Positions 9,842 through 48,800 of a stretch of DNA of 64,000 nt are shown here, piece by piece. Below the pieces are notes generated by a model. The model made no database searches and had not been told where the DNA came from. It saw only the letters and a program-made list of their open reading frames with translations. A program made the translations under genes and the position numbers. The DNA is from Lytechinus pictus (taxonomy: Eukaryota). The DNA lies in NCBI RefSeq assembly GCF_037042905.1, contig NC_087251.1, positions 11,596,001-11,660,000 of the forward strand, given 5' to 3'. The stretch's first letter is position 1, and the number at the start of each line of letters is the position of its first letter.

Positions 9842-9883
9842 ACCTTGTTAATTCCTCGACATTTATTTTGTCTTTTCGCTCAG

Positions 9884-10032
9884 GAACTCTTCCAGAAAAT
9901 CCACCAGTTACCTTGGATTCAGAGATTAAACTTGATGACCCTTTCATGCTCCAAGAGTGGATTGAAGACAACCGGGAGGAGATTGATTCCAAAGGTTCAA
10001 AGTCTCTGTTTGGAGATGATAATCAATTTAGT
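9884..10032 (+). CDS. HAAO: HAAO exon: (G)TLPENPPVTLDSEIKLDDPFMLQEWIEDNREEIDSKGSKSLFGDDNQFS
   Basis: ctcag acceptor and gtgagt donor; phase-1 start continues the frame; resembles the start of the metazoan HAAO C-terminal domain (P..L..W...LFG). Confidence 0.9.
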
Positions 10033-10089
10033 GTGAGTACTTACTCTATTTCACTCTTTCTCATTTACTGACTATTTCTAACTCAAGTA

Positions 10090-10460
10090 TTCATTGATAT
10101 AGTCACTCAATCATTTACTCACTGAATTCACAAACTTAGTTATTTATTTGGATATTTATTCTCTCATTCATTCACTAACTTGTTTGCATACTAATGAATC
10201 ACCAGCCAGTTCCCTTTACCCATTTGTAATTCATTCACTCAACCATTTACTTACCAATATACTCACTCATTTACTTAATCATATACTCATTTATTTACTC
10301 ACCAATATACTCATCCACTCACCCATTTTCTTATTAACATACTCATTTACTCTTTTATTTACTCGCCGACATACTCATTCACTCACCCATTTTCTCATTA
10401 AAATACTCACTCATTCACTCACTCATGTACTTACTTATTTACTCATTCACTTACCAATGC
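10090..10460. repeat. Degenerate (ACTC/ATTT)n microsatellite
   Basis: Runs of actcattcactcac and tttactc. Confidence 0.7.
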
Positions 10461-10814
10461 AATCATGAAAGGACAAGTCCACCCAAACAAAAAGTCGATT
10501 GGAATCAAAAGGAATAAGCCAAAAAGCATAACACTGAAAATTTCATCAAAATCGAATGTAAAATAAGAAAGTTATGACATCTTAAATTTTCGCTTAATTT
10601 CACAAAATAGTTATATGCATATCCTTGTCATTATGCAATTGAGGAAACTGATGACATCATCCACTCAATATTTCTTTTGTATTTTATTGTATGAATATGA
10701 AAGATTCTAATTTTCTCCTCATTGTCAAGTGAAACAGTGATTAATTCCTCCCTGAACATGTGGAATTAGCATTGTTTAATAACATAATAAACATTCATAT
10801 GACAATAAAATACT

Positions 10815-11047
10815 ATGTCCATTGACCCAAAATGACCTTTTTTTTTACCTTGATCATATGACCTAAGACTTGTGCAAAACAATCAGTGATCCTTGATTCC
10901 TCTCATGTCATGAACTACATCCATAAACTTTCATAGTTATGACATTTCAAAAAATTAACCATGGTTAAGATTTCAATGTTGATGACGCCGCCATTTTCAG
11001 AAAAGCAGCGCTTTTACTCTCGCTCTGCTATGCAGGTGAGACAAAAA
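10815..11047 (-). mobile_element. 5' fragment of the same HINE-like family, inverted
   Basis: GCTCTGCTATGCAGGTGAGACAAAAA is the reverse complement of the start at 18773; part of one repeat unit present. Confidence 0.7.
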
Positions 11048-11083
11048 TTACCCTCTATATGTATATACATACACAGACATGCC

Positions 11084-11444
11084 TTAACGATTAAAGTGAT
11101 CCTTAATTATCTGCTCTCTCCTGAGCCTTCCTGCGACAGCGTCGTGGAGGCCAGGAGGAAGGTGGACACGCGGAGGCATTTCCTCAGGCTCAGGTCCTGG
11201 AATATCTGGCTCGCGCCAGTCAAGAGAGATATTCCACAGGACCGAGCAAGACACTATGATTGCAAATGTAGTGTCCACCTTCAAGCAGAGATAATTGAGG
11301 CAAGGGAACCTCCTTTTCAAACGACCAAAAGACCGCTCAATAATACAACGCCTTCTTTTGTGGGCAGCATAATAGCGTACCTGTGGCCGTCCCTGAGGAT
11401 TCAGGAGAGGGGTCATGAGATACATGTAGGGAAGACACGGGTAC
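11084..11444 (-). CDS. PIF/Harbinger transposase (HARBI1-like DDE nuclease), last exon
   Basis: tttcag acceptor; YPCLP..LMTPLLNP...YYAAHKRRRCIIERSFGRLKRRFPCL...IIVSCSVLWN is the Harbinger DDE_Tnp_4 C-terminal motif set; ends at TAA. Confidence 0.9.
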
Positions 11445-12036
11445 CTGAAATGGAAATTAAAGGAAAAAAATACATGTAAGTCTCTTACTATTAAATTTAT
11501 GTAGGGAATTGGACGCACTAATTAATAAATTTCCTAAGCAATTTATTTCAAAGCAATACAGTAGAAATTAAAAAAATTATGATCCATTTCTTTGTCTTGC
11601 CACAGCTGTTTGCACAAATACAAAGTAATAAGTTGTAAATTCAATCCAAAATGGACAAATTAATTCTACTTACTAATAATGAATTAATGATTAAAAAATT
11701 GTACTTTCTCAGTAAACCACATTAATATCTAATCCCCCCCCCCCCCTTCCCTCAAAGAAAACTATGCTGATGAAGTGAGTTCTTTTATTTTGTGTAGGAA
11801 TTATGGATCCCTTTTTTTTTTTCATTAAGAAAAAATGAAATGTAATTAATTAATTTGAATTACAAGATTAATAAATTGTGGGGGGGGGGGTCACGGTTTG
11901 GGTGCATGTGACATCTCAATAAAGTTTCATTAATTCAGATTATTCTTCAATAGTCATTGAAATTATAACAATTAAACTACATATTTTGGTGTAGGTTCCT
12001 CTAAGATAGGATACACTTAATGACCAGTGTACATAC

Positions 12037-12185
12037 CCACTATCTCCAAGAAGCCACTCAGCACCATCTGCCCTTGCCTCCAGTTGTTCCTTCAGTGAGC
12101 TCTCATTGAAAATTCGGGAATCATGAGTGCTGCCAGGCCACCTTGCCACAATACTTGTTTTTTTCCCAGCAAGATCACAAACTAC
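12037..12185 (-). CDS. PIF/Harbinger transposase exon: VVCDLAGKKTSIVARWPGSTHDSRIFNESSLKEQLEARADGAEWLLGDSG
   Basis: aatag acceptor and GG|gtatgt donor; WPGSxHDSRIF and LLGDSG(Y) motifs; splices in frame to the exon starting at 11444. Confidence 0.9.
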
Positions 12186-12924
12186 CTATTAAATTTGAAA
12201 AAGTAGACATACATGAATCACACATTTACATGTACATTGAACTTAGCTTTGCAGGAAATTCAACTGCTCTTTTCTGATTATTGCAACATATTCTTCCAAA
12301 TGTGTAATTTGACTCAACTGCCTGCAGTAATCTCCCAACATATGAATTTGAATGAGCCTTATATTCGTTAATTGATATGTAAAATCTTAATAAGACCAAA
12401 CATTTAAAATACCCTTTCATAATCATTGATAATGCAAGAAGTTAATAGTTTAATGAATTCAATTTTTGTAATATCCTATTTGCAATATTCAAATGAAGGG
12501 TATGGATAGATGACATTTATAATAATCTATTTAATAATTGCAGTCTTGTGTTGAAACATGTATATGGCCTAAATCAGGGATTCTCAAAGGGTGGCACGCA
12601 CGCCACTTGTGGCGCCAAGAGCCTTGCGGAGTGGCGCGTGGGAGCCGGTACAAAAAAAAGGGGAAAAAAAATAAATAAAAGTTTGATCTACTATTAACCT
12701 GGAATTGAGGTTTAATAATTTTATAACAAAGGGAATACAAAAACTTGACTGTATTTGAAATTTAAATGCTTATTGATTTCCTTGGATTTTGTGTAATCTA
12801 GCATTCGATAACCCTATTATGGAGGATCAATCGGATGGTGTTCTTCTTATTCATTATATTTTTGATGTATTTATTTACGACCAGTTAAAAGACTACGTAC
12901 ATATGTAAAAAAAAAATTTGTATG

Positions 12925-12997
12925 ACTTGGTTGAGAATTAAACCCACGACCTCCCATTCATGAGGCGGACGCTCTACCACTGATCACCATGCCCGGT
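12925..12997 (-). mobile_element. tRNA-like SINE head fragment
   Basis: Minus strand CAGTGGTAGAGCGTCCGCCTCATGAATGGGAGGTCGTGGGTTTAATTCTC with A box and degenerate B box. Confidence 0.5.
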
Positions 12998-14990
12998 TTG
13001 CTTTTAAACATGAATCTCAAGAACAAATGCAGAAACATATTTAACAAACATTCATTTGAGGAAGCCATTAATCATTTTTTTTAAATAGTTTCAAAATTCT
13101 ATATAGAACTTTAGTATCCCCACCTACATGTAGAGCTATCATATAAAGCAAACAAAATTGAAATTCATCAACAAATGAAGGAGAAAAGGTATATTTGTGA
13201 TTTATGAATAAATTTTAAATAAATTAGCACAAATAATTTTCAAGTAAAAATTTCAAAATTCTGTGTACAAGTTTGGTGAACCTTATGAAGCTCTACCATA
13301 CCAGTTGGAAGCAAAAAAATCAAAATCGGTCAAAAAATGAAGCATTTTATGTGAATTTTTAAAAATACGCATAAATTACATGTAGCATAAAAAAATTTCT
13401 AGCCATAATTTCGAAATTCTGTATACATGTTTGGTGAACCTCATGAAGCTCTACCAGATGGAAGCAAAGAAATCAAAATCGGTCAACAAATAAAGAAGAA
13501 GCATTTTTTGTTTAATTTTGAAAAATGCGCATAAATTAACATATTTAATGAGTTAAAAAACTTATGTGTAGATGTTTAGAATCCCCCACCTAGTGCTATC
13601 ATACATATATATATTTTTTTAATTGTGGACGGATGACAATCTCGGGGGGGGGGGGGGGGGGGATGGGGCAAAAGTTTCAATTTCGCCCGTCCTCTACTAC
13701 GCTACGGCTACGCACATGATTATTGTATACTATTATATTTTTTTTACTAATTTAGCCTATCTGTAGACTAGTAAGTTATTTGTTAGGACAGTTCGGGCCA
13801 GGGGCAGGAGGACCACTCACACTAACGTTAGCCTAGCCCTAACTTAGGAAGTCTTAGCTGAGCTCAGTCAAACTCAGCTCACTCACACGTATTGCGAGGT
13901 TAATATTACTATTAGTATTACTACTAACAGGAGGCAGAAGGACCAGGAGGACTCAGGCAGCTAGCTTGCCACAGGCACAGCCTCAGTCAGGTTGTTTAGG
14001 AAATTGGGCTAAAAATACCATGGCATGGAATGCAAATCATCATATTCCATGGTTTCTTAAGTTACTAATGATAGGCCCTATCATTTATTTAATTCGTTTG
14101 AAATTCGCTTTGTCCATGTTACATTGAGATCTAATCAATGTCCACCCTTGTGCGAGGCGAGATCGCGATGATTGAAGGATCGAGCGAAACTCGTGTATAA
14201 CTTCCAACACAAAAGTGAACGAATGGGACTAGCATTAAAACACTGTTGCGATAACGTAAAAAACAACAATGTCATGGTCTTTTCGAATGTCAATTTATTA
14301 ATTTAAAAAATACGAGGTATGGATATAATGTAAATACGAAACTGAATGAAAATAGGCATCGGAAATATAACGATATACTTACGATTTGTGCTTGAACTTG
14401 GCCACTATCACACAGAATGAGGCAGATTTGGACTGAATCGTCTGCAAATTTTTCTTCAAAATTTTGGCGCCAATTTCGATGAAAAAGATGGACAAGTCGA
14501 TTTTGCGCACGCGCGAAGGATTAAACCACCCCAAAGAGCAGTCTAGATTAAAACCAAATTATGATGTAGTTAAACCCCCCGGCGGTTTAAACTTCTTTTA
14601 TGAATCGCAAAATCAAGACCGTGGTCTAAATTTAAACCTTATATGGGGTTTAAACCTCGACCATGGTTTTAACTTCTTTTGTGAATTCGGGCCAAGGAAG
14701 TCTAGAAAAGTATTTTGCTTCTAAGATTGAAATGTTCTAATCTATTAAAGTGTAGATTTATGAGGTGTTCCCTTGAATGGCATTAAACTCAATGCTTATT
14801 CAGGGACTAGTACCCAGAAGTGTTTCATAAAGATTTAAGTCTAGACTAAAAGTCATGCTTAGATTCAAACATACACATGCAATGGGACGTTTGAGTGTGA
14901 TTTTAAGTCAGACTTCGGTCTTTGTGAAACACCCCCTGATTTGTCTATATCTTACAATACATTCATGAGGTTTTACAATTTCCTTTTTAG

Positions 14991-15059
14991 GTCGTGATGT
15001 GGGGAGCTGGATCTGAGTCGGGTGGTTGTGAGGCGGCAGAGGTCTGGCTGTGGCAGCTG
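14991..15059 (+). CDS. HAAO: HAAO exon: VVMWGAGSESGGCEAAEVWLWQL
   Basis: tttttag acceptor and gtaagt donor; 69 nt, phase 0/0; conserved VWLWQL motif. Confidence 0.92.
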
Positions 15060-15224
15060 GTAAGTTTTGACCATGTCTCACAAGACATTATAGTCCTTTT
15101 CACATGAAGAAGAACTTAACTGTTCTATAAAGGCTTTGGAGCGATTAAAATAGGAGTTGAGATTACACTTTTTGAGTACAAAAAAAATTAATCAATTCAT
15201 GATTATGAAATTATTGAGATCAGC

Positions 15225-15600
15225 AATCTCATTTGTAATTTATGTTGATATTGTGAGTAAGAAATAGAAGTTGAGTTCAATCTCTATCAGAAATTGATAT
15301 CAATTTTGTGATCAAGAAATAGAACCTTAGACCACTCACTATTTGACATTGATATCAATCTTGTAATTAAGAAATAGCAGTTTAGACCACTCACTATTTG
15401 ACATTGATATCAATTTTGTGAGTAGGAAATAGAAGTTGAGTTCAATCTCTTTGTGAAATTATCAATTTTTGGATTACGAAATAAAAGTTGAGATCGATCA
15501 CTATTTTAAATTGATATCAATTTTGGTAAAGATCAATCTTCTGGGTTTTTTTTGTAAACAGAGAGGAGTTGAGATCAATCCCTATGATAAATTCTTGATT
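15225..15600. repeat. Degenerate ~55-60 bp minisatellite
   Basis: Repeated ATTGATATCAATTTTGTGA..AAGAAATAGAAGTTGAG units. Confidence 0.6.
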
Positions 15601-16585
15601 TAAGAGCTGATTCGATATCAATCTCTACAATAGAGATTGTACTCCAACAATTGGAGCGCTGTGTGTAAAATCTTGATATGATGTGGCCATGGGGAGAAGG
15701 TGGAATTGCTACTAAATTTAATCAATTTTTTTTGTCCAATGCTTATTTGCATTGTGTGCAGTCGAAATCCATCCAGATTTCAAGGACAACTCCACCACAA
15801 AAGTTGACTTGAATTATTAAGAAGCATAACACTGAAAATCGGAATCGGATGTGAAATTAGTTATGATAATTTAATGTTTTGCTTAATTTCACATAACAGC
15901 TATTTGTGCATCCTAGTCAGTATGCAAATGAGGGTACCGATGACATCACTCACTATGCCTTTTGTGTTTTACTATATGACATATGAAATATTTTAATTTT
16001 GTCCTCATTGTCATGTGAAAGAAAGTGTTATTCCTTCCTGAACATGTGTAAATACCTTTGTTTTAACATTTGTACATCTGTAAAAATTGAAATATTCTAT
16101 AATTCAAACAATAAAAAAATCAAAAGAAATAGTGAGTGAGTGATATAATTGACTCTCATTTGCATATCACTGAGTTGTGCATAAAAATGTTTGTAAAACA
16201 AGCAAATTTTTAAATGTCATAGATTTCTTATTTTACATCAAATATTGATAAAATGTTCAGCGTTATGCTTGTTTAATTTTTCTCTCTACAAATCAATTCT
16301 TTTCTAAGCTGGACTTCGATCTTCAATTCTTTCATCTGAGTATCCTTCTTACCCCTCCCCTTTATTTCTAATAATGTTGATGATTTCATATTATAGTTGT
16401 AATTGGTATTACAACTAAATGATTTGACATTATTCATAATGTAAAATCTTTCAAGTCTTATATTTATTTATTTTCTTTCAACTAAATTTATACTCAAATA
16501 CAATACATTTTCCATACTAATTACTTAGTATTATTTAGTAGTAGTTATAGTACTCCTCACTGTCATATTGTTTGGTATCTTCCAG

Positions 16586-16677
16586 GAGGGAAAGTCAGAC
16601 GTTGGTGTTGGTGATGTCAAGGTTAAGAAGTATGAACTCAACAAAGATGAATGTATGCTGATACCGAAAGGAACAAC
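16586..16677 (+). CDS. HAAO: HAAO exon: EGKSDVGVGDVKVKKYELNKDECMLIPKGTT
   Basis: ttccag acceptor and gtaagt donor; continues WQL-EG; L..D...L.P.GT pattern of the HAAO C-terminus. Confidence 0.88.
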
Positions 16678-17162
16678 GTAAGTATTCTTCCTAGATCCTA
16701 GAAGAGGTTCCTTTTAGAAATTCTAGAAGAATCTTGTTGATTCTATTTTATTATTTTATTCATATTAACCTTCATTTTCTTCAATTTCATAAATTTTCTT
16801 AATTTTTCAAACAAAATTCATGCAAAGTCAATATAAAGAATATAAATATATGCAAGTTATATTTACAGAAGAACGCGTAGCAAGTAGAGTTGACGAAATT
16901 GTATGTTATAGAAGTTTAAGAAAAACAAACTTTATTGAATGTAATATTTTATCAGCTGACATCACAATTAAACATCTAAGAGATGGCAGAACTTGAACAC
17001 TTTAGATATGTTCATTTTCTGGTGGGGTTCGCAAACTTTTCAGCACCACTGTATGTGTAATATAATGAAGTACTACAAATTGTTATTGAAATCAAACATA
17101 ATTTTTTTCCTCAAACCATCCTCACCAAACACTGTTTGATATATTCTTTTTTGTTGCAACAG

Positions 17163-19700: not shown

Positions 19701-22010
19701 TTAATTCTCACTAGCTGAGCTTGAAATATAAATTTTGCCAGTTGAATTTCTTGTTTTTAGCAGGCATTAAGAATGAATGCAGTGTTTATTATTTTTTCAT
19801 TCAGAATGTGATAAAAGAGCCGGGAAATTTTTGGGTATGTCATTTACCAAAAGATCACATAACAATTGTTCATCATGTCCTATGTACCTTTTTGAACCGC
19901 TGTATGAAGCAATCACTGCTATGTCAGGTAAGGCACCTTACCAAATGCCCATGCCATGTTTGTAAGCAGAAATCCCTCTATAAAGTCACTTAGCGTCTTT
20001 TGCAGCAGCTCTCCAACATTCCATATTGTTATGTCTATGACGAAATGTAACTATTTACAATGAATGAAATGCTTGCTGGATTTGTCAGCCTAGCTCAGTG
20101 ATATTTGTGCAATGAATGGCAAGGTTGCTGGTTCAATTCCCAGAATGATATAGATTTGATATTAAGTGTACCGTACCGACGTTGCACCATTCAGTTTTGG
20201 AGGCATGATGCCAATTTGTATATCCTGAAATATTTTTCATTTATGTCAAATAGACTTCCCAAAAGTCTGCATGTTTTAACTAGTATTCCTTGAAATTTGT
20301 TATTTTATTAATCTAGTTTGGCCAATTATAAAGTGCTGAAAGGGGGAAATTCCACCCTGAAAACAAGGTGATTTAATAAATGTAGGAGCAGCAAGAGAAG
20401 CATGTCAAGAAGGTTTAGTGAAAATGCCTCAAATGAGAACAGATCATGGAGTTATAAATTGTCACAGTTTTACTTTTGTGACATCACTTTCAATCTGCTC
20501 TGCCTAATCTGTATAATGAATCCCATTTATTTGCATATTTAAGGGTTCATGACAATGCACATAATGGGTTTTTGTTCATAGAAATTTTAACAAAGTAATG
20601 TTGTTTTTTTATTGATGCAAAGATAGAGTAATTTTTAAAAATATGAAGAAAATGGCATTTTATGGAATTCATCAGATACATGACAAGTGATGTCACAAAA
20701 ATAAAACAATAAAAAGAGCAATATTCTGATATAAACTTTGATGGATTTTTTTCAAATTTCATTGATTCATAATTTTCTATGTTTTTGCCTTTATTAGAAC
20801 CAACAAATGTCTAGGTAACCCTCAAGTTTGGTAATCCCAAACACCTTGTTTTACTCTATTTTACTTTATTTAGCATGCAAGAGGCCACTAGGCCTCACCT
20901 GGCAGCTGAGAATACAAATAGGTGATTCAATTTACTGTACACAATTTTTTTTTTTACTTCAGATTTATATTTAGATTCTATGTCTGACATTTGTAAGCGC
21001 TGTGATACTTGTATAGCGCATATATGAATAACCATTATTATTATTATTATCATCATTATTTATTCTTTTTCCACTATATCCAATTCATCAATTATAGGTG
21101 GTAGAAATCAAATCTTCTGTAATAATTTCTGTAAAACAATCAGGTGAATTTTTCATTACTATACTTACAATTGTTCTTTGAGATGAAGGTAGGGTCTATT
21201 CACTGGCATATTTTGCGTTTGACTTTTTACATGTATTTTCATAATAAAAATGTGTGAAAATTGATTGAATGGCATTGTTGGCATATTTTCTGTTCTGATG
21301 ATAAGGCGCTATGCTCAGTTTGTTCTTCCGAAAAATTGCATTAAAAACAGACATACTGAAGCTTTTCAACATGCATTCATCGGAGTAAAATCGCATGAAT
21401 GAACAGAACGCTAGAACAAAACAACTGCCTGATTTGTTTACCTTGACAGCCAATTATAACCTGTTGTTTAGCATCCATTTCTTTCTCGGTTCTATTATAT
21501 ATTGTTTCATTCTAATAATCTGTTTAATCATGGAATTTTACTCCAATGAGTGCACCTTAAAACGCTTCAGTATGTCCATTATTAATGTTATTTTCTGATT
21601 ATGCAGCACCAAATACTTTTTTATTTAGTTTGTCCTTTCCTCTTAGTTTCATTTTCTTATGATTTACACAAAGTTTTTAGGCAAACACATGTATATAATT
21701 TAACTAGAAAAATTCCTACTCCTTTGTTGCATTAACCAAGATGCTTTTTTGGTGGGCAGGGGCATGGGCAGAAGTCAATTTTTTATTCAATTTTTTGTTC
21801 TTGCAAATTCATAAAGAGCATTACCTACAAATAAAAATACCATAAAAAAACATTTACTGTAGATTAAGAAAAATTAAAGGCAGTTGGTAAGATTGTCCAG
21901 GACATAAATCAATGATTCAGCTGAAAATCCATAAACAAAAAAGGTCAGCCCTTGTATATAATCCAAGTACTAGTAGTCGGATATTCAAGATATCTGCAAT
22001 GTTGTGTTAA

Positions 22011-22532
22011 CCCAGGGGGGGGGGGGGGCACTCAGTATATAATGCGTGGTGGGTATGTGCCGCGGAGAGGGCCCCCATTTTTACACTCAAATTTCCTTTC
22101 CAAAGCATAGCATTTTTATCTTATTGAGAAAAAGAACAAAGAAAGCCATTCCAATGCAGAGCATTTTCTTCTTCTTGATAAAACAGAAGAAATAAATCCT
22201 TTCCAAAGCTACGCATATTGTTCGTAAGGCTGTTCCGGCCGCATTGTTCAACTACAATGAGGTGCATTTTTGGTGAAAAGCGGCCCGCAGAGTGCTGTCT
22301 GACCATCGCCTCTACGCAAGCACACCTGGACTAGCTGAATGCACGTGTGCGCGTTCCATAGGGATGCATACGCACTCACACGCAGGCGAACCGTTCCAAG
22401 GACCCCTTTTTCACCAACATGTAGTTCAGAAGACCCTCCTTATTACAATAAGCCCGTTCCAAAGCCCCCGTTTTTTGTTTCGCCCGTGGCACATACCTAC
22501 CACTTTTTTTGTTGAGTATGTGTCCCCACGGG
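22011..22532. mobile_element. MITE with CCC(G)n termini
   Basis: Imperfect TIR (CACTCA...GTGGTGGGTATGTGCCGCGG / CCGTGGCACATACCTACCAC...TGAGT); flanks share TGTTAA. Confidence 0.65.
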
Positions 22533-22943
22533 TGTTAAATCTACTGAACTATTTCTTTGTGTTTTAGGATACAAAATACGAAATATTTTCATGTTTTTGC
22601 CATTATAATGTCAGAAATTGATTCCCGGGGCTCCCTGCATATGGAATTGCAGTACAGTTGGGATTCATTGAAGATTTTCCTTATTGTCAAATCTGCAAAA
22701 AATGGAATATTGTATAATTCAAACAAAGTGGTGAAAGTGTGACATCATTGATTTTCACATTTTCATATCACTGTTGTGCATATAACTTTTTTCAAATAAG
22801 TGAAAATTTATGTCATAACTTTCTTCTTTTCCATCCGATTTTGATGAAAATTTCACTGTTATGTTTGCTTGATTTCTTTCTTTTTATTCAAATCAACTTT
22901 TTATAAAAATGGACATTGCCTTTAATATAGTGGGAGAGAATTT

Positions 22944-23270
22944 CCCTGGGGGAAATAAGGCATACAGGGATGTGCCGCTGGAATGGGTCACTTTTTTGGA
23001 ACATGGGGTATGGTCTTATGCTGGAGAATCCATCCCTAAACATGTGTCATATGGCCTCAATTTTTAGATACTGGCCTTAAACAGGTCCATATTCTCCTCC
23101 AATTTAGGGTGATAACATTTTTTGTTTGTTTGATAATTTTGATAAATCCTTAAAGGGTACGTACCTTTTTGGCCAAATTTAAGTGACCCGTAAATATGGA
23201 TATGGGTTTTGAACCTTCAGCCGCACACCCCCGTCCAAACCAAATCTACATGTAAGTATCCCCCCCCCGG
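22944..23270. mobile_element. MITE with CCC(G)n termini
   Basis: CCCTGGGGG...CCCCCCCGG ends; GAATTTCC duplicated in the flanks. Confidence 0.6.
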
Positions 23271-23604
23271 AATTTCCTATAACTTCAAAAACAATAAAGA
23301 CAAATTACAAAAAAAACCTTTACATAATTCTTTATTTTTAACAGAGAATTGTTTAGTTTAATACAAAATGGTTGTTTGTAATAGTTACATATGGACAGAG
23401 TCTCTTCGCATATTTTATGAATAAAAAAAAATCCTCCTGTAATATGAAAAAAGCAATAAGCCTCATTTCTCCATTAAAATAGGTAGTCAGATATAGATCG
23501 TCTAGTCGTGAATTCCTCGTAGAAATCCCCAATAGTCTTCAATCTTAGTATTTATGCCTTATCTATTTTTCTAAATGTAAAATTTCACACACACACACAA
23601 AAAA

Positions 23605-23826
23605 TCGTCTGCTAGCTGCTGATCACGTGGCCACCTTAGTCCTGACGTCACAGCAAAACTGCAAATCAACAAGGAAGAAGGAAGAAAATCCGTGTGGATA
23701 AAATTGTCGTCCGAACGCTTATATTTGATTATTTCCGACAGCGCCAACGGATTTATTAAACTGGCCCTTTGACTGGTAATCTAGAGTAACGGACAGCGAT
23801 TTTACAGTAATTTTGAAACGGTAAGT
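23605..23826 (+). promoter_or_regulatory. Candidate promoter and non-coding first exon of a downstream gene
   Basis: CpG-rich unique stretch; E-box GATCACGTGG (~23620), CRE TGACGTCA (23643-23650), consensus donor CG|GTAAGT at 23820/23821. Confidence 0.4.
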
Positions 23827-24010
23827 TGTTGAAGATTGTGCAAATATGAGGTAATTGAGAGAGGTAACATGCGTGGTGATGGTGAAGCATTCGAAGGGTA
23901 TCGTATCCGCCTTTCTCACGGGCCAGGGTACGGTATAGCCGCAAACAGCAAAGCCTAGCGCGAGCCTGAAGACGAAGGGCCAGGAACAGGTGAAGCGAAT
24001 TACAGCTGTA

Positions 24011-24494
24011 CCGTAGGATGGGGGGGTCGGGTGTCCGGACACTTTATATTTTTGAAGCCTTCTTTTTTGTCTTTGGATTACACTAAAAATATGAATTCAA
24101 TACTTATTAATCATCTTCTATTTTGTTCTTTATAATATTTCCTAACATTTTGTATACCCAGTTGTTGTGTGTCCGGACAGGTTGTGTGTCCGGGCGATCA
24201 ATTTTAGAAAGTCATTTGGAAAAATTTACAAGGAAAGTTTTATCAATTTTTAGTACAAAATGTCAGGAAATATTATAGAGAACAAAATAGAAGATGATTA
24301 CAACTATTGATTTCGTATTTGTAGTGTAATCCAATGACAAAAAAAAAGGCTTCAAAAATATAAAGTGTCCGGACACCCGATCCCCCATCCTACTAAAAAT
24401 TGATGAAACTTCGCTTGTAATTTTTTCCAAATGACTTTCTAAAATTGATCGTCCGGACACACAACCTGTCCGGACACACAACAACTGGGTATAC
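24011..24494. repeat. Interlocked inverted repeats (A-B-A'-B') rich in TGTCCGGACA; Tc1/mariner-like MITE derivative
   Basis: ~24011-24153 is the reverse complement of ~24254-24393; ~24151-24255 is the reverse complement of ~24392-24494. Confidence 0.7.
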
Positions 24495-24669
24495 AATACA
24501 AGCTCGGTGGAGTGACGCTGCTGAGCTGAGTGCTGATTTTCAGTGCATTGGCCATTGCATTGCGGTATTTTGATCTGCAGACTGCATTTCTGGTGAATTC
24601 TATATTTCTAAAACGAGGGAGCAATATTTGTAGACCAAGGGCCGCGCCGTGTTCTGAAAATTGTCTTAA

Positions 24670-27180
24670 GGACGTTCCACAGTTAAAGTAAAATCCATGT
24701 AATTTTCACCAAACTTTGCACATAGATACTTTAGAACCTTAATATTCGAAATATGCAAAAATTAACATAGGTCCATGTGCTTGATTTTTTGCTATAGAGC
24801 TTCAAAGTTCACCCAAATTGATGTTCTTAAGAATTGCGCATTCAAAAGAATTTGGCATTTTTAGACCTCCCAAGATTACTACAATGAGTTTAAACCTCTA
24901 TTACTCAGTCAAAATACATGAAAAAGTCATCAAATTTCGCAAGAGAGTTAATAATTGTATCGTTATAATGGAGAATCTATTTATAGTGCTATATGTTTGC
25001 AATTTTAAGTTTAACAGCGCTGTCATTTCTTTAAAAAGGCGTAAACGATAACAAAATCCCAATCTAAAAAATGTAAAATTTCAGTAACAAACTACAAACG
25101 TACAATAAATGCTGCACTTTATTCAAAATCCATGTCATTTTCACCAAAATTTGCAGAGTTGTAGAGGAAGGTATACCTAAGGCCAAGTAAAAAAAGAAAG
25201 TAGTTGATCGTCCTCGCGCGCATCTATTTTGGCCGCCGCATGAAAATTTTTACTATTTACTATTTTCAAAAATTGGCTAAAAAAAAAAAAAAAAAAAAAA
25301 AAAAATTGTGATGTTTCTCGTCCGCGCCCGATTCCCTTTTTGATAGCAGCATCAATTGTCTTGATATTTACTATTTTTATGGCTTCTGAGTAGCGATTTT
25401 TTTTTACAAGATTGGCAAGCGATTTGCTCCCATGTGCTCTGGGATCTCTCTCGCAACTTCAAAAACAATTGCTAAAAAAGTCCGATATCGCCGTAACTGC
25501 AAGAAAGAAAAAAAATTCTGATTTGGTTTTTTATTGGAATTTTGAAGATACCATCATAAATTAGCAAGAAAATAAAGTTTGCAAACTCGGAAAAGATCAC
25601 GGATTTCTTCATTTTTAGTGCATTTTCGGGGACCCCGCTTCATGAATCTGAACTAATCCGTCGCGTGCTTTGGAAATATGGCGCAGATAAATCAATTTTA
25701 ATGACGTAATTTGTATTTTAGCGGGTATTTTGGTGAGTGATAGCGCCTGTACTTCGATGTGTATTACGATGATTGACTGTGCTTGTGTTGGGTGAATGCA
25801 TGTGTGCTGGGCATGGGATGATGTGATTGACTGTGCTGGCGCGACATGTGAATTTGTGAAATGGATTGAATTTTCTGGCGAGTTTTCTAACGTCAGCAGG
25901 CAATGCATTGAATATTCAAAAAATTATTTCAAGATTGAAAATCATTAATGGGATTCCAGTAAGTGCCAATTCTGTTCAAATTTGATAAACTTCATTCTTC
26001 CTTGGGCTATTCGATTTGATGGACAATTGTAAAAATTAGTTATAGATCTAACACTAACAGTTACAAATATTGAAATAATAAACATTACTGGTATGTGAAT
26101 AATTAACAATTAATTCAATAATCATTTAACATTTGATATCAATTAAAAGATGAATAAAAATTGAACAGTATTAAACATTATGTAAACGAACATACAGCCA
26201 GCTGGAAACTGCAACGCGAAACCATGCCCAGAGCTAAAAAAGAGATTGACTCTGGAAAACTGAACATGGCTCCATGGTAATGAAAATTACCCCCCCATGC
26301 ATTTTTTACTCTTACATATATATTAATATGGAATAATGTTTAAATCATTCACTTGACATGAACATTTTGTTTTACAACAATACAGTACCGGTATACATCA
26401 GTAATACATCAATAGATTTTATTGCAATATACATTTTCCATAGATTTCCAATCAATTGTATATATTATGCATATATATCTATATATATATATTTCTACTC
26501 ATAAATTATCAATATTGAGCATGCATCGATCACATAATTCGAGCTTGACATGGCCTGACAATCATTTGAATAAAAAATAGCAAAAAAAAAAGTAAATAGT
26601 AAGGACCTCCCTCATCACTGATGTCAAAAAACGGGCCGAGAAAATGCCCCCTTGTTTTCAAAAAAAATAGTAAGATAGCAAATAGTAAGGACCTCCCTCA
26701 TCACTGCTTTAAAAAAACCCGGACGATCAACTACTGTCTTTTTTTACTTGGCCTAAGAGGTACAAACATTAAAAAATAGGGGTTCATGTGCTTGCTTTTA
26801 AACTATCAGCATTTTTATTAGAGCAAATGTGCTTTTTAAAACACCAAAAATGCGCCGAATGCTTTGTATCTATGTGAAGAAAAAAATCAAACCACTCTAC
26901 CATGTATTCAAACTTGGGGTAATATTCGTGATTCTTGGCAGCAATGCAGAGTAAAGTATTTTGAAATTGTAGAAATTTTTTTTTGAATGGTCCATGGAAC
27001 AATTCCATTTTTTAGCTTCATGAAATAACGCATCGGATCTGCAGTTAAAGTGCAGAAGATGAGAAAAATCAGCTCATACCCGCAGCTAATTAATCACCTG
27101 TTCATCCATTGTGACGTCAGCGCGCAGAGTGTAAACTATGCGCAGATCATAATGCGCACAAACATAAGTGTGGAACGTCC
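24670..27180. mobile_element. Non-autonomous Kolobok-like element
   Basis: TIR GGACGTTCCACA; TTAA TSD (24666-24669 and 27181-27184). Confidence 0.8.
25181..26753. mobile_element. Non-autonomous Zator-like (or Harbinger-like) element nested in the Kolobok-like element
   Basis: 33-bp TIR GGCCAAGTAAAAAAAGA.AGTAGTTGATCGTCC; 3-bp TSD TAA. Confidence 0.8.
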
Positions 27181-27685: not shown

Positions 27686-28495
27686 TGCGCAGACTTGGGG
27701 GAACTTGCCATACCTTTTCTTGTAACTTTCGCTAAGTGCGTATGATGTCAGAGCTAGAATTATGCGGAAAGTTAAAAACGGCGGATAAATATCCCTTTGC
27801 GCAAGATAACATATATCGAGATAAAAGGTATCTTTGACTTTGCGTTCTGTTAACTTCCTTGCAAAATACAAGAAAATTTACAAGAGGTAGGGAGCCAAGG
27901 GCCGATTGCACGAAAGGGTCTTTCCAAGGACCATCTTTCGTGTCGCCCATCTTTTATGATGCGCTGTTTGCGGGATTTTCTGAAATGTATGATAAACAGA
28001 CAAGGGGGACTGCGCAGACTTGGGGGAACTTGCCATACCTTTTCTTGTAACTTTCGCCAAGTGCGTATGATGTCAGAGCTAAAATTATGCGGAAAGTTAA
28101 AAACGGCGGATAAATATCCCTTTGTGTTCTGTTAACTCCCTTGCAAAATACAAGAAAATTTACAAGAGGTAGGGAGCCAGGGGCCGATTGCACGAAAGGG
28201 TCTTTTTAAGGACCATCTTTCGTGTCGCCCATCTTTTATGATGCGCTGTATGCGGGATTTTCTGAAATGTATGATAAACAAATGAAATTTGTTAGCTAGC
28301 ATTTTAATCGATTTGTATACAATTTCCTGATATATCACATCATTTTATAAACAAAGATTTTGTTTACTCTAACAGATGAATAAAATATGTTTGCAGGTAA
28401 TTTATTTAACATGTGTTTCACATGGCGTATCATAATAAATGGGCGACACGAAAGACGGTCCTTGGAAAGACCCTTTCGTGCAATCGGCCCATGGG
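27686..28495. repeat. ~325-bp tandem duplication (27686-28010 and 28011-28281) overlapping a MITE-like inverted repeat (28177-28495)
   Basis: TGCGCAGACTTGGGGGAACTTGCCATACC... repeated; GGGCCGATTGCACGAAAGGGTC... occurs twice on + and once inverted at 28430-28495. Confidence 0.75.
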
Positions 28496-41416: not shown

Positions 41417-42624
41417 CTATACAATGGGGATAAAATGTCCCCATGTGTATTTTTATTTCAATAAATTTCTGTACAGTGTACATGTGTGTACAAACAAGCT
41501 GCACAAAAAAACATTTTGTGTGGCAGTTACATGTAAAATGCATGGCAGAATGCTTAGACAATTGCAATGCTATACCAGGGATATAATTCTGTCACATGCA
41601 GACACAGGGCCTTATCTTAAGGTTTAAGTGTACATACAGTATAAGCAGAAAGCACTAATTTTACAAGGAAGTAATCAAATCATACATGAACAATTATCTT
41701 CCGCGATTTCGAATGCAAATATGTGAAGTAGATTTCATTCATATTCAACAGATTCATTGAATTGCAAACAAACAAACCGAACCATGAAAGCACTTGTATA
41801 CATGTAAACCAATGGGTATGACTATGGATTATCTTTTCACAGTTCACATGCAGAAGTGCACAAATAATTCAAAAGTAGTTCACATTTCATGGTTGGGTAG
41901 TATTAATCACTTTGCCTTTCTGTACAGTATTGAGCACTGACTGCTTTTCCATTTCCTGATTGAAAATGTAAAAAGGTGGGACTACAGTACAGTGAACATG
42001 TAAAAAGTGCATCAGTGGTTTTCAACATCTGTTTCACTAATGGCCCACTTTTACTTTCAAAATAAATCTTTTGTGACCAAACTTCATTCTTGATTTATTT
42101 ATGAGAACATCTTTCAGAATTCTAAATTTCAAATGAGAGAGAAAACAATACCCACTGAAATTATATGAAATATAAAAACAAGGAAAAATTGACATAATGT
42201 GGTGGGCCCCTTATTACAAGTACATGCATGTAAATATCATTCATACAGAAATTGCTGGATGAATTTTCTTCTTAACATTGCATTGGTAATATTATTTCAT
42301 GCTATTATGTGGTTGGAGTAAACAGTTCAATATCATTCAAGCTCACTCCCTCCAAAGCCTACCCGACGAGTCCGCCGACCAACACGCACAGAATGCCACC
42401 ACTGACATACCTACCACGACGCCGACACACACACACGCCGCCGGAACTCACCCCGCCGTCTACACACCGCGTCCGCATACCAACGCTAACTCGTTTCCCG
42501 CCAAACCGCCGACCCACACACAGAGCACCACCTACGACGTCAGCCCGCCGTGACCGCCGGCCCAGCGCTTTCCCCCACGTCCGCACGCACGCCACAAGTA
42601 CCGCCGCACGCCGAGCGAACACTC

Positions 42625-42665
42625 ACTCCTGAAGACGGACAGTCAACCTGTCCGAAACGTCGAGT
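42625..42665 (+). ncRNA. Minimal type-I hammerhead ribozyme in the 5' pLTR (predicted cleavage after C42661)
   Basis: ACUC-CUGAAGA-C-GGACAG(UCAAC)CUGUCC-GAAA-CG-UC-GAGU: core CUGANGA/GAAA/UH, 6-bp stem II, stem I ACUC/GAGU, vestigial palindromic stem III (ACGU). Confidence 0.85.
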
Positions 42666-42917
42666 CTCTCTACTACTCATCATCTCTACTCGCCGACTCA
42701 AGCCAGCATCTCCTCATCAGCTCTACTACTCAAGCTGTTCTCAACTCATCAAACTTTCCTGGTTTACAGTCCTTTTCAGGACTACTTTCAAGAAAGAATA
42801 CTCTACTCTCAAATCTCCACTTTCTCGCCTATCCATTTCTTCTCTTCTTCTATCCACTGTTTCTATAACACTCCACATGTTGTACCGTAAACCACATCAG
42901 CGATTGTACATGCCACC

Positions 42918-45563
42918 ATGCAAACCTTCAAACAACATCTGACTCAGCTCTACGGGGAGCCTACTCAACGCACCGCCAGGCAACTTAAGCGCGACCTAGT
43001 TAAATCAGCTAAGCTTACCAACCACCTCACCTTCCTCAAACGCTGCCGCCACTCCGACATCATCCCGCCAGGAGTACAACTCAAATCTTCCGTTGACACC
43101 CTGAAAGCCAAACGCATCCTGCACTAAGCCAGCTTAGACCTTACTCGTGAACGCACTGCACGCACCCGACACCAACTCCACGATCTCAACTCAAGCATCG
43201 CTTCTACTCAAACCCAACTTAGCCAACGACTCAAGCCAGACGATCTAGACAAAGTTCAGGGATTCAACAACTACACATCTCGCAAAGCCTTCCAGTCCAC
43301 CAAACTGAAGCAAATGAACAAGTTCGACCGACTCCACTCCCGCAAGCCTTCACAAGCCAACCAACAACCTTCGACCGAAGCAACCAAGGACACCGTAATC
43401 AACCTTAGCCGACACCAACTTACCCAAGCCGAACACAAAGTACTCTCCCTTGGACTCAACTTCGCCGTAGCTCCTAAGAAGATCCCTTTCTCGGACATAG
43501 TACAGCAAGTCGAACCCAAGCTCCGCTTTCTCTCCTAAGCGGCAGCCAACGAAATTAGACTCAAAGTGACCAATGCCCTCTCCGACGCAAAGCCACCTAA
43601 ACAAAACCTCTCCAAAGAAGAACACTCTGCCATCCAGGACCTCCGACGTAACCAAGCCATCCACATCCTTCAGGCTGACAAGGGCAACGCCACCGTTGTC
43701 ATGGACCAAGACGTATACGATGACAAGATCGAAGACATTCTCCAAGACAAGGACACCTACTCCAAACTCAACAGAGACCCAACTCCGGCCAATGAAAGGA
43801 AAATCAACCAACAACTGCTGACCCTACACCGATCCGAGGCACTACCCAAGGCACTCTACTTCCAACTCAGATCTTCTTCAGCCAAGTCACCTATCCTATT
43901 CGGACAACCCAAGATACACAAGCCTAACACTCCTCTCCGTCCTATCATCTCCACCCGCAGGTCACCCTGCTACACCACAGCACGCCATCTGGCCAACATC
44001 CTCCAGCCACTCGTAGGCCAAACCCAGCACCATGTCACCAACTCCAAGCACTTCATTGACATCATCTCCAAGACCAAGATCCGGCCCTCCGACACACTCG
44101 TTAGCTTTGATGTCGTCTCCCTCTTCACCAGCGTACCTGTAGACCAAGCATGTGACATCATCAAGCAACGCCTGATCACCGACCCAGACCTCGCATCCAG
44201 AACCAATCTCACACCAGACCAGATCCACGACCTCCTCCTCACCTGTCTCAACTCCAACTCCTTCAAATGGCGCAACAGCTAATACAAACAACTACAAGGA
44301 GCAGCCATGGGCTCACCTCTCTCACCAATCATCGCTAACATCTTCATGGAACATTTCGAGCACCAAGCACTCAAGACTGCGAACAAACCTCCTTCACTCT
44401 GGCTCCGCTACGTCGACGACACCTTTGTCATCTGGCCGCACAGCACACCCGACCTTCACCAGTTTCTCAACCACCTCAACCTCCAGCACCCCAGCATCAA
44501 GTTCACCATGGAGACCCAACGCGACAACTCAATTCCTTTTCTAGACATTCTCATCACCAAGACACCATCTGGATTCCTATCTCACCAGGTGTACCGGAAA
44601 CCCACCCACACAGACCGCTACCTCAATTTCCGCTCACACCACCACCCATCTGTCCACCAATCAGTCGCCAACACTCTCATCAGACGAGCCCACCAACTCA
44701 GCGACAAGGCGCACTTACAACAGGAACTCAAGCACGTGACCAATGCACTCACCACCATCAACCATTACCCCAGGAGAAGGATCAACACTCAACCGTCCAG
44801 CCACCAACCCAGCACCAACAGCACCGAAAACCCATCCGAAACCAAGCCGATCGCCACCATAGTACTTCCCTACATCGGCAAGACTTCACACCGACTACAA
44901 CGCATCCTTCACTCTGCCAACATCCTCGTCAGACACCAATCCTCTCGCAAGCTACACTCCATCCTTCACTCTCACAAGGACAAGCACCCATCCAACAAGC
45001 AACCAGGCGTCTACAGGATCCCCTGCGACTGCGGCAAAGTCTACATTGGAGAAACCGGCCGAGACTTCGACACCAGACTCAAGGAACACAAGACCCACCA
45101 CCGACGCAGCGACTGGGACCGATCTGCCATCGTCAAACACGCACAACAGGAAAATCACCGCATAGACTGGGACAAGAGCCACCTAATCACCAACATCCGG
45201 CACTGGAATACCAGAAGGGTCAGGGAAGCCATTGAGATACATCAACACAACACCGTGTCTCAAGACCCTGGCCTCCACATCAACAGCATCTGGCACCCAA
45301 TTCTACGTCACCACCCAACTTCCAACCAATCCACAACCAACCCGCCGTCCACCGTCACACCACCAAGCCCTCCTACCCAACACAGCAGTCTGATTGCATC
45401 ACCAACTCAACCAGCGACTTCACCGACGCACACACCACCGACACCTCGCTACAACCTCCGCCGAAGACCCAACACCTCATCCGTTCACCAGGCCACCCAC
45501 TCACTCCCTCCGAAGCCTACCCGACGAGTCCGCCGACCAACACGCACAGAACGCCACCACTGA
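42918..45563 (+). pseudogene. PLE polyprotein (reverse transcriptase + GIY-YIG endonuclease); one reading frame interrupted by three TAA stops (43125, 43536, 44280)
   Basis: ORFs starting 42918, 43314, 43566 and 44307 share one frame; motifs ADKGNATVVMD, PKIHK..PLRPIIS, SFDVVSLFT, GAAMGSPLSP, RYVDD, YRKPTHTDRYL, GVYRIPCDCGKVYIGETGR...RLKEH, REAIEI. Confidence 0.95.
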
Positions 45564-45782
45564 CATACCTACCACGACGCCGACACACACACACGCCCCC
45601 GGAACTCACCCCGCCGTCTACACACCGCGTCCGCATACCAACGCCAACTCATTTCCCGCCAAACCGCCGACCCACACACAGAGCGCCACCTACGACGTCA
45701 GCCCGCCGTGACCGCCGGCCCAGCGCTTTCCCCCACGTCAGCACGCACGCCACAAGTACTGCCGCACGCCGAGCGAACACTC

Positions 45783-45823
45783 ACTCCTGAAGACGGACAG
45801 TCAACCTGTCCGAAACGTCGAGT
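45783..45823 (+). ncRNA. Minimal type-I hammerhead ribozyme in the 3' pLTR (predicted cleavage after C45819)
   Basis: Identical to the 5' pLTR copy, 3158 nt downstream. Confidence 0.85.
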
Positions 45824-48800
45824 CTCTCTACTACTCATCATCTCTACTCGCCGACTCAAGCCAGCATCTCCTCATCAGCTCTACTACTCAAGCTGTTCTC
45901 AACTCATCAAACTTTCCTGGTTTACAGTCTTTTTCAGGACTACTTTCAAGAAAGAATACTCTACTCTCAAATCTCCACGTTCTCGCCTATCCATTTCTTC
46001 TCTTCTTCTATCCACTGTTTCTATAACACTCCACATGTTGTACCGTAAACCACATCAGCGATTGTACATGCCACCATGCAAACCTTCAAACAACATCCGA
46101 AATAACACTTGTGTTGTGCCACCATTCAATAGGGTGCTATCCTCTCACAATATCAGTTGGTTTGATACTAACATCATAGTCCCCACTTCAGTGAATCAGT
46201 TGAGAATTGCTATTGAACATCAAGGTAAAGACCTTGTTTATATACAAGTACCCCCTAACCCCCACCCCATCTTCCTATGCTTCACTCTCGGTTTCAGTCA
46301 CCCTATAGTAAATGTCTTCCTTCCTGTTCACTGTTGAAATTAAAATGTGTTAAATTTAGAACAGAACCTCACCTTCCCCCTTCACCCATGGAAACCTAGG
46401 TTTATCAGTCTTACTAAGTCTTACTCTATGACTATCTTGTGTGATAAATATTAGGGCTATACCTGCACAGTGTCACACAAAATGTAAATTAGGCCTAAAT
46501 TTAAATCAAAAGTTTCTTGATGGCTTTATAGAGAGAAAGGCTATTGGGGTCAATAAAAAAAATCCTCCAATTGGCCAATCAGCCAGCCGTGACACACATT
46601 GGATCTTGGGATCTTAAATAATAGATCTGTCCTTTACGAATAAATATTTAAAACTAGATTGTTGCTCAAGTTTTTGTAAGAAAAGTAGAAAACCCTAAAA
46701 TACTTGAGCAACCATTTGATTACATACAATTTTGTAGACACTCCCCCGACACTGGACATCACTTAAAGCGCCCTGCCATTGACAAATCATGGAGAAATTG
46801 AATCAATACGAAATTTGCAAAAGGCCAATTGACTTGCATAATATAATCTGTCCGTCATGAACGCCCGTCGGACTAATGCGATAATGATATTTCACATTTT
46901 GCTCAATATCAAGATTTTTAATAGCTAGGCATGGATACATTATGGTCTGACGCTGTGAATGAATAATCCCGAGTGCGTCTGCACCTGCAAATTAGCGGGA
47001 TAATTCAAGAATAGCACACGATTTTGCAAATAATCCTAAGTTAACCTAGGATTGCAATCTCGAGATTAATCCAGCAAACTATCCCAATGATTGCATCTCC
47101 ATTACAAATAATCACAAGATTGTTCAGATCGGGATAATTTGCCAGATCAGAGATAGCGCGATTACAGTATATGAAAACCCGGGCTGGTGCAGACGGCCCT
47201 ATTCTTAGGATTAAACGTTTAAGTGTAACACATGACAACACGCAAAGTACACAACACCCCCTCCTCTCTCTCTCTCTTTCTTTCTTTCTCTCTCTCTATC
47301 CCTCCCCTTCTTTATATCTCCCATTCTCATTTCTTACTTTTTCTTATCCTCCTAGTCCATCATACAATGTAAAACACATCCATATGCTGTCAGTGGACTC
47401 ACAAAAATCAAGCAAAATCAGCAACACACATGTTATGCGGCGGAGGTGGGGGGCTACATGTACTCTAATTATTACATGATACCTATGTGCTACACCAAAG
47501 GTTAAAATAAGGGGTTCTGGAATTAAATATAAGTCTTAAGGGTCTCAGGAACGGCTATACATGTAGGATCAACGATTGCTAAAAATACAATGCAGTGGAA
47601 CTGTACAAAGTCTGTTGATTTGCGTGTTTTGGTGTGTTGCATGAATACGCATCAAATTGGTCATGACGTTGTTGTAGTCTGCAGGCATAGATCCTGATTG
47701 GAACTTTGATCAACAAGTGTGCCTCCATGCAAAGACTAGCACATACAAAACTCGCTGTTCCAATACAGGCTTCAGTACATAAGGCATGAGTAGGCCGCAC
47801 ATTCAGACCCTTAACTCGAGTGAAGGGTTTGCCCAGCAGACCATTGTTTCTGCGTGTTGGACCAATCAGCAGTGTCTGAATCGCTGACTTCGCTGTGCAG
47901 AGCCTTGGCTGTCCATTGAATGCAAATCACCACTGTGCTGCGCTGAGTATGAGCAGGCATGGAACGAGAAAACAACGAAATGAAGGGTCTTTTCACTATT
48001 GGATCACAATTTAAAAGTATCAAACTTATATTAATGACTCTAGGATAGTTGTTTTGATTCGGGATGAAAAGTACTTTTTGCTGATTTTCGCAATTTGATA
48101 CCCTTTTTCATTGTAGTACATATAGTACATATCCCAGGCAGTAAAAACAACCCGTGGGAGCATGATAGTGCCACCTTTGTACTTGCACTGCCCCCACCCC
48201 CATATCCCATCTTGATACATAACATGCATGAATGAGAATAAGTTTTACATTGTATTGAAAAAATATGCCGTCTTATGATTCCAGCACCAGGTAGGCTAGG
48301 CAGAGATGTGTTTCATCATGTCTGGTGTAGGCTTCAGCTCTTGGTTACAAGAATCATCCTGGTTTCCATGGCAACCTTGGAAAAACCCAAATTAATGGAA
48401 ATTAAAAATAAGCACAATACAGAAGTTGAAAGACTCAAGGCTGTTGTTACAACACAAAGGATGGAATTACTTTTGTAAAAGTATCTCCTTGTTCTGATGT
48501 AATTAAGGGCCTTTTCACATGTGAATTATGAATCATCATTGTAATAATGATTGCAATTTGTCTTTAGAATCATCGGACCAAATCCAAAACTTGAAATTCA
48601 AATAACTTTCTTAATATTTAATGGATTTTCCTCAAAACTTCCCCAATATTTTTTATTATTTTTCTGCTTTTTTTACAACAGAGTTTTTATCAGGGTGAAT
48701 TTCCCCTTTAAGAGAAACCCCCGGTAAAAAATTAAAAAATGATGAAAGTACATGTTCATGTAGATTGACATTATTTTCTGTGGGTTACCGTATACATTGT

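Follow-up and report, generated by a model that had tools for sequence, protein, structure and literature searches.

Paired minimal hammerhead motifs in a dead Penelope/Poseidon-type element of a Lytechinus-like sea urchin, of a family probably copied mostly from uncut RNA

Minimal type-I hammerhead ribozymes (min-HHRs), paired in the pseudo-LTRs (pLTRs) of Penelope-like elements (PLEs), were published in 2014 (Cervera and De la Pena, PMC4209133). The text of that paper describes single min-HHRs as inactive, dimers as weak and most motifs as solo, and it names no echinoderms; its supplementary figures may do so. In the accessible part of a 2026 preprint, one of nine tandem hammerhead dimers cleaved and eight did not. 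For PAc, the Poseidon element of Anolis carolinensis, the accessible sections of Frangieh et al. (2024; PMC11167929) report a ribozyme that, in experiments controlled by mutants and rescue, cuts only with the element protein, ribozyme mutants that insert normally, unprocessed RNA as the main substrate, no RNA-seq reads ending at the cut site, and reverse transcription that starts within the beginning of the open reading frame (ORF). An internal promoter lies in the pLTR of the Drosophila virilis Penelope, according to the abridged source PMC2377424.

The locus described here, in a window of 64 kb (the whole stretch of DNA that was analysed), is another case of paired minimal hammerheads in PLE pLTRs. 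It resembles the min-HHRs described in the text of PMC4209133 in its type-I topology, a helix I of 4 bp, a base left unpaired between positions 9 and 10.1, the G10.1-C11.1 pair and palindromic 15.2-16.2, and likewise has one motif per pLTR, with ~3 kb between the two, and solo copies in large excess; it differs in a helix II of 6 bp, compared with the typical (not strict) 7-8 bp, and in an extra base, C, that is able to pair with G12. With PAc, as described in the accessible sections of PMC11167929, it shares the domain layout, 39% protein identity, a 3' end that falls within the ORF start, flanks rich in AT and a pLTR hammerhead. Unlike PAc, where the ORF starts in stem II, the hammerhead here lies ~290 nt upstream of the ATG; the 3' end is ~20 nt into the ORF compared with 111-118 nt in PAc, the present copy is broken, and those sections mention no histone-like signal for PAc. 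Animal non-LTR retrozymes, as characterised in the accessible text of 10.64898/2026.07.22.740005, are non-autonomous, hammerhead-bearing and derived from PLE pLTRs, the origin also of the abundant short family described below, but the locus itself is a coding 3158-nt unit and not a tandem array of short non-coding units that each carry a hammerhead. The paired motif as first noticed matters little, since such pairs have been known since 2014 and this copy is unable to make protein; some value attaches to two side results, on the copies of its family and on a second RNA signal in the same repeats.

Layout, classification and decay of the element

The element comprises a single ORF, encoding a reverse transcriptase (RT) with a C-terminal GIY-YIG endonuclease (EN) domain, between two direct pLTRs that form a partial tandem, with the repeat overlapping both ends of the ORF. 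The 5' pLTR takes in 21 codons from the end of the ORF sequence and 22 nt from its start, and the two pLTRs are identical from 42603 to 42771. The coordinates of all features are collected below.

Features of the element and its repeats (positions in the 64-kb window)
Feature	Positions	Strand	Remarks
5' pseudo-LTR, 5'-truncated upstream copy	42342..42939	+	598 nt, differing from the 3' copy at 10 positions
Initiator-like YYANWYY match	42623..42629	+	+1 at 42625 (first stem I base); candidate transcription start, inferred, weak; at the depth step
Minimal type-I hammerhead motif, copy 1	42625..42665	+	predicted cut after 42661 (C17)
Histone-mRNA-like hairpin, 6 bp with 4-nt loop	42768..42783	+	Rfam RF00032, 15.9 bits against a gathering threshold of 34, E 0.07
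CAAGAAAGA purine box	42789..42797	+	5 nt past the hairpin; resembles the histone downstream element
RT and C-terminal GIY-YIG ORF	42918..45563	+	881 codons with three stops; ATG 42918, TGA 45561-45563
Premature TAA, codon 70	43125..43127	+	sense codon in all covering contigs and in 6/6 covering family proteins
Premature TAA, codon 207	43536..43538	+	sense codon in covering contigs; residue in 8/8 family proteins
Premature TAA, codon 455, inside the RT	44280..44282	+	sense codon in covering contigs; residue in 8/8 family proteins
RT catalytic YVDD	44409..44420	+	residues 498-501; Pfam RVT_1, E 4e-6
GIY-YIG motif GVYRIPCDCGKVYIGET	45006..45056	+	residues 697-713; Pfam GIY-YIG, E 1e-5
3' pseudo-LTR	45500..46097	+	598 nt, 98.3% identical to the 5' copy
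Minimal hammerhead motif, copy 2, identical	45783..45823	+	predicted cut after 45819 (C17)
Second histone-like hairpin and purine box	45926..45955	+	hairpin 45926-45941, box 45947-45955; one pair now U-G via the change at 45930
Element 3' end	46076..46097	+	junction 22 nt into the ORF-start repeat; likely internal RT start site, by analogy with PAc (PMC11167929)

The order of the RT and GIY-YIG domains, their motifs and the pLTR layout bear out the identification as a PLE made by the initial, sequence-only reading of this DNA. A DKG motif is present at residue 254 and no match to the Neptune/Nematis CX2-5CXXC linker was found in the ORF protein, both features being used to separate PLE clades in the accessible sections of PMC8557442. 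Because of these motifs and the similarity to the Anolis protein that matches the PAc description (39% identity over 801 columns), the element was placed in the Penelope/Poseidon clade; judged by its sequence, it is a Penelope/Poseidon-type PLE of a Lytechinus-like sea urchin. Its protein is most similar to those of Lytechinus pictus and L. variegatus, and next to those of Strongylocentrotus, Diadema and sea stars; a protein tree, built by a quick method with three long partial rows and free of Neptune references, serves only to place the protein among its echinoderm relatives. Searches of solved structures matched the RT with distant RTs only. Identity to eight Lytechinus proteins is 91-95%, and three of these are whole ORFs of 880-894 amino acids with the same start and end; the frame is whole in the relatives P0138, P0146 and P0124.

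This copy of the element is dead, because its ORF carries three premature stops. The 3158-nt unit between the two hammerheads, read at the outset as containing a whole RT-EN frame, therefore cannot encode RT-EN. Programmed read-through of the TAA codons was considered and is ruled out by relatives with sense codons at all three places, whereas three stops arising by decay are plausible (P 0.08-0.23 for 30-50 private changes). At nine more positions the residue is unlike that of every close relative covering it, one case being G348R in the RT. The description of the element as young is thus only partly sustained: the 1.7% divergence between the repeats fits, but the copy has already decayed.

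No target-site duplication adjoins the junctions, where only chance matches of 4-5 nt occur within 30 nt, and no GT-AG joint, as expected of the spliceosomal intron that some members of the clade have in the pLTR, was seen among the 15 joints listed of a total of 69, all from contigs. No short copy of the element was found elsewhere in the window. It had also been suggested that the hammerhead could truncate a host pre-mRNA spanning the site. This idea was not upheld, no spanning host gene being shown: a Pfam scan of 70 of the 718 stop-free stretches of at least 40 codons, which misses short exons, gave three weak hits, all below the cut-off. A candidate exon at 52.7 kb was discarded, its sole match being to an unnamed protein and in another register.

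The hammerhead motif and its relatives

The 41-nt hammerhead motif has two letter-for-letter matches spaced 3158 nt apart, and none of the 10 mismatches between the pLTRs falls within it. It parses as a 4-bp stem I, CUGAAGA, the extra C, a 6-bp stem II closed by a UCAAC loop, and GAAA-CG-UC, so that the catalytic core (CUGANGA / GAAA / UH) is present together with the unpaired base, G10.1-C11.1 pair and 4-bp helix I of the PLE minimal type. Helix III is reduced to a palindromic ACGU with a self-duplex energy of -3.1 kcal/mol. The pair of identical motifs, the extra C and the ACGU remnant had all been recognised in the sequence-only reading and were confirmed, as were the assignment to the PLE minimal type, which fits the consensus given in the text of PMC4209133, and the two cut positions, which follow from standard hammerhead numbering with C17 at 42661 and 45819.

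A strict descriptor of the motif gave two matches in the window, both of them these motifs, and none in 200 first-order Markov simulations of 64 kb or in 2000 simulations with the element's own composition. Folding z-scores were ordinary (-0.63, -1.08 and +0.67) and are uninformative alone. A search with the Rfam hammerhead models, proposed earlier as a check, returned no match at E up to 10; this null is expected because the motif has no stem III, and it was not counted against the motif. Helix II becomes 7 bp if the extra C pairs with G12, for which the predicted pairing probability is 0.97, and the active-like dimer of the hammerhead has a predicted energy of -23.5 kcal/mol compared with -30.2 kcal/mol for the best cofold.

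Twenty-five loci were picked by protein similarity in a scan of metagenomes that used the RT region. The hammerhead descriptor matches 16 of them, comprising 14 of the 19 loci of one family (L003), which is ~49% identical in protein to the window element, and two of the six others; the loci were fetched by protein, and their hammerheads lie in terminal repeats. The 14 hammerheads of the L003 family share the layout, their extra base being A and their remnant of helix III a CG palindrome that is intact in 11 of the 14; the two more distant loci lack the extra base and keep CGCG of helix III. The extra A cannot pair with G12, and the register of the hammerhead is therefore fixed. Between the window element and the L003 family all 10 pairs are kept, five having changed on both sides and one on one side, and the catalytic core bases are invariant across three families with differing stems. 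Conservation or covariation across family copies had been named beforehand as a test of the motif; between families, compensatory changes in five of 10 pairs favour the hammerhead, with covariation partly built in by the choice of the relatives' hammerheads through a pairing descriptor and with three families compared. In the automatic alignment two distant rows are one column out of register, which is the source of its unpaired cells.

No close relatives of the element were found in the viral contigs or prokaryote genomes searched. Separately, 31 viral-contig matches to a loose pattern of the hammerhead core were recorded.

Short copies and the template for reverse transcription

Four public runs, all in the form of contigs, were mapped on 41900-45499, with depth taken as summed contig word depths in 120-nt bins; these values are not copy numbers, and the bins cannot place an edge to the base. 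Runs X15 and X8 are only presumed to be RNA, and their cover was not used as evidence for transcription. In runs X1 and X4, depth is ~55-70 in the flank, 650-2000 at the ORF start and 10,000-17,000 at the ORF end, and rises from 20,000-25,000 in 42500-42619 to 420,000-610,000 in 42620-42739, a step of 20.7-fold in X1 and 24.7-fold in X4. This step lies at the 5' edge of the hammerhead, upstream of the predicted cut site, and even on the assumption of the highest plateau 37-49% of it, or 64-65% with a stepped plateau, has to come from 42620-42661, again upstream of the cut. Depth drops after ~42940, where loose ends enter AT-rich DNA, and the family's 3' ends cluster before such flanks at 42934-42943, the equivalent of the 3' end of the element. 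In the Penelope/Poseidon clade two internal RT start sites give an optional tail of 30-40 bp. One 3'-end cluster was seen for the window element's family; two ends, 33 nt apart, were seen only in the L003 family, where they resemble the two start sites of PAc given in the accessible sections of PMC11167929.

Approximately 97% of the plateau depth comes without the window's version of 42744-42758, and the short copies therefore constitute a distinct subfamily. A 53-nt skip from 42839 to 42893 seen in contigs would give a unit of ~262 nt. Short copies with the whole core are the expected product if uncut RNA is copied from an internal start, and this very abundant hammerhead-to-tail family, as reconstructed from contig sequence, does keep the core, which suggests that it was copied from uncut RNA. 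YYANWYY is the initiator consensus; the pLTR contains 10 initiator-like matches to it, including the one at the depth step.

The explanation that we regard as likely is that this is a dead Penelope/Poseidon copy, that its hammerheads are probably weak, conditional ribozymes, and that uncut RNA, and not a released circle, is the main template of the family. Its observed part consists of the layout, the motif, the cross-family pairing, the stops and the depth step at the hammerhead 5' edge, and the rest is inferred, as follows. A lone hammerhead would be unable to form stem III, and the catalytic G12 is predicted to be paired with the extra C; to cut, the hammerhead would thus need the element's own protein or else a partner copy that it engages by way of ACGU. 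Reverse transcription would start inside the RNA, ~20 nt into the ORF, and proceed 5'-ward across the uncut hammerhead. RNAs starting at or near the hammerhead would then give short hammerhead-to-tail inserts of ~260-315 nt, making up the very abundant non-autonomous family, and the present locus could be mobile only via protein from intact family members.

The sequence-only reading, in line with a proposal in the text of PMC4209133, had the two hammerheads of a read-through RNA pair through ACGU, cut after 42661 and 45819 and release a 3158-nt unit that could circularise and, in this model, be reverse-transcribed. The geometry for this is right, the unit running from 42662 to 45819 with the ATG 256 nt in; most hammerhead loci of the L003 family (11/14) retain the CG palindrome, and the head-to-tail layout is the expected product of a circular template. 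However, the proposal stands as a hypothesis in that text, where dimer activity in vitro is low, and eight of the nine tandem dimers of the 2026 preprint failed to cleave. PAc, according to the accessible sections of PMC11167929, inserts from RNA that is mainly uncut, the abundant short copies include the part of the core upstream of the cut site, and the ORF of the 3158-nt unit is broken at this locus. Release and circularisation as the normal route is thus unlikely. Reads across the junction of 45819 with 42662, offered as a way to detect the circle, would read like the linear repeat; as the repeats are identical from 42603 to 42771, short junction reads therefore cannot show a circle. At this locus, only a read of at least 171 nt that covers both 45760 and 42772 would be distinct from the linear repeats. 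A joint from 45499 to 42342, examined as a sign of a tandem or circle, is merely the ORF running into a 3' repeat. One X4 joint, from 42661 to 42906, begins exactly at the predicted cut site and could reflect a cut RNA. The short subfamily could also descend from one founder truncation, in which case it would say little about the usual template.

At the other extreme, the hammerhead might never cut in vivo and persist either as a passenger or as a structural signal, for instance a hairpin near the promoter, a binding site for protein or a stop for the RT. The predicted locking of G12 by the extra C is in keeping with this, as is the proliferation of Naiad PLEs without canonical hammerheads, reported in the accessible sections of PMC8557442, which also raise the possibility of hammerheads parasitising PLEs. 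Nevertheless, a core that is invariant across three families whose stems differ, and the cutting of the PAc motif in the presence of protein, controlled by mutation and rescue (accessible sections of PMC11167929), make such a history unlikely. The rise in depth upstream of the cut offers genome-level evidence on the role of PLE hammerheads and favours uncut templates over a circle, in line with the preferred explanation of weak ribozymes in a family whose template is mostly uncut RNA.

A histone-type hairpin and purine box in the pLTRs

Between the hammerhead and the ORF, each pLTR carries a hairpin followed by a purine box (Table). The 9-mer CAAGAAAGA is one that we take to be the sea-urchin histone downstream element, and a literature search gave no confirmation of it. 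The hairpin has a UUUC loop with U at loop position 3 and G-C as the second pair, which agrees with the SLBP hairpin features listed in the introduction of 10.64898/2026.10.14.759114, and the AAAGA core of the box, at 42793-42797, is complementary to the conserved U7 box UCUUU given in the accessible part of PMC5054213. Compared with the histone 3' signal as described in RF00032 and in the accessible parts of PMC7026596 and PMC5054213, the 6-bp stem, the UUUC loop, the G-C pair in second place, the AC that follows the stem and the purine box with its AAAGA are alike. The first pair, by contrast, is A-U, the Rfam score is below threshold, and the signal, which both repeats of a retroelement carry, stands 363 nt away from the stop codon, compared with 25-60 nt in histone mRNAs; the purine core lies 9 nt from the hairpin, a spacer 7 nt shorter than the 16 nt of mouse H2a and too short to place the standard cut 4-5 nt past the hairpin.

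A pattern of half the hairpin plus CAAGAAAGA gave two matches in the window, both in the repeats, and none in 100 shuffles, while the hairpin appeared in three of 100000 composition-matched simulations and never with a following AAAGA; all of these patterns were drawn up with the sequence already in view. The histone-type hairpin is absent from all 95 fetched loci, including those of related PLE families, and the full form was not present among 39 further pattern matches. An unrelated repeat has a similar hairpin at 28199 that lacks the box. No literature joining Penelope with the histone stem-loop was found in a search that largely excluded subscription journals.

The 3' end and fate of the RNA may be set mainly by the hairpin and purine box, acting through SLBP and the U7 snRNP, with the hammerhead secondary. 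Such a role would suit the G-C second pair and the U at loop position 3, the confinement of the half-hairpin pattern to the repeats, the rarity of the hairpin in simulation and an element that has neither AATAAA nor ATTAAA. It is nonetheless unlikely to be the main determinant: the pattern was defined post hoc, a ruler-type cut would land inside the stem given the short spacer, the gap to the stop codon and the Rfam score are both unfavourable, the hairpin is missing from the 95 loci and has a box-less look-alike, its loop and 3' arm can also be read as a splice acceptor, and the missing poly(A) hexamers are not significant (P 0.12).

If functional, the hairpin and box would represent a retroelement using a pathway thought to be exclusive to histone mRNAs. 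In its fullest form, which is speculative and probably incorrect, the family would have co-opted the host histone 3' signal, with SLBP binding, whether or not a U7 cut follows at ~42782-42788, sorting tail-less translatable RNA from uncut template RNA. The element would then be linked with S phase, or else with the egg and cleavage embryo, which are rich in histones, and the abundant hammerhead-hairpin-tail mini-elements would be small histone-like RNAs across the genome. SLBP binding and the putative U7 cut would both fall between the hammerhead and the RT start site.

Contig joints at the left part of the element

Contigs from two public sequencing runs, X1 and X4, were compared with positions 41900-45499. 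One X4 joint, with a depth of 84, departs exactly at the predicted hammerhead cut site (42661) and re-enters near the tail at 42906, with 4 extra letters. The joint may represent a template jump onto cut RNA, or it may be a product of chance, given the many joints. Both X1 and X4 contain opposite-strand joints from 42630 to 42752/42760, an indication of partial copies in inverted orientation whose breakpoint is the 5' edge of the hammerhead. In addition, a contig of 1302 nt (X4, record 16) matches the left flank (41905-42345) to the element edge and then continues with ∼320 non-element letters; this contig, compared at the left flank only, is possibly an empty-site allele.

Related Penelope-like elements

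A related Penelope-like element (PLE) family, represented by 19 metagenome loci fetched by protein similarity, has two recurrent 3' ends located 33 nt apart (5968 and 6001 in locus L003) and numerous inverted partial repeats, a combination that is a PLE tail signature. P0058, the Anolis protein matching the description of the Poseidon element PAc, begins with MPAIDVGETS (residues 1-10). According to PMC11167929, the Anolis element is cut 26 nt past its start codon, and the GETS of P0058 would, judged from its sequence, be compatible with both that cut and the same GAAACGUC remnant.

Other features of the window

The histone-like hairpin lacking a purine box, found in a single copy of an unrelated repeat, served as the chance control for the hairpin of the element repeats; its loop differs in other copies of the same unrelated repeat.

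Positions of further features in the window
Feature	Position	Strand	Remarks
Tandem duplication, 364 bp	6043-6769		99.7% identical; adjoins 606-bp element
606-bp element with inverted ends	6846-7450 and 62260-62864		copies 96.7% identical, 55 kb apart
Exon-like stretches	9659-10068 and 16529-16678	+	
Transposase pieces, presumably Harbinger-type (DDE)	11087-12185	-	motifs WPGSTHDSRIF, LLGDSGY, IERSFGRLKRRF
Histone-like hairpin	28199-28214		no purine box

The two exon-like stretches appear to resemble the C-terminal part of 3-hydroxyanthranilate dioxygenase, and a Pfam scan of 70 of the 718 stop-free stretches (40 codons or more) of the window returned no match for them. Apparent decayed duplicates of the first lie directly upstream of it.
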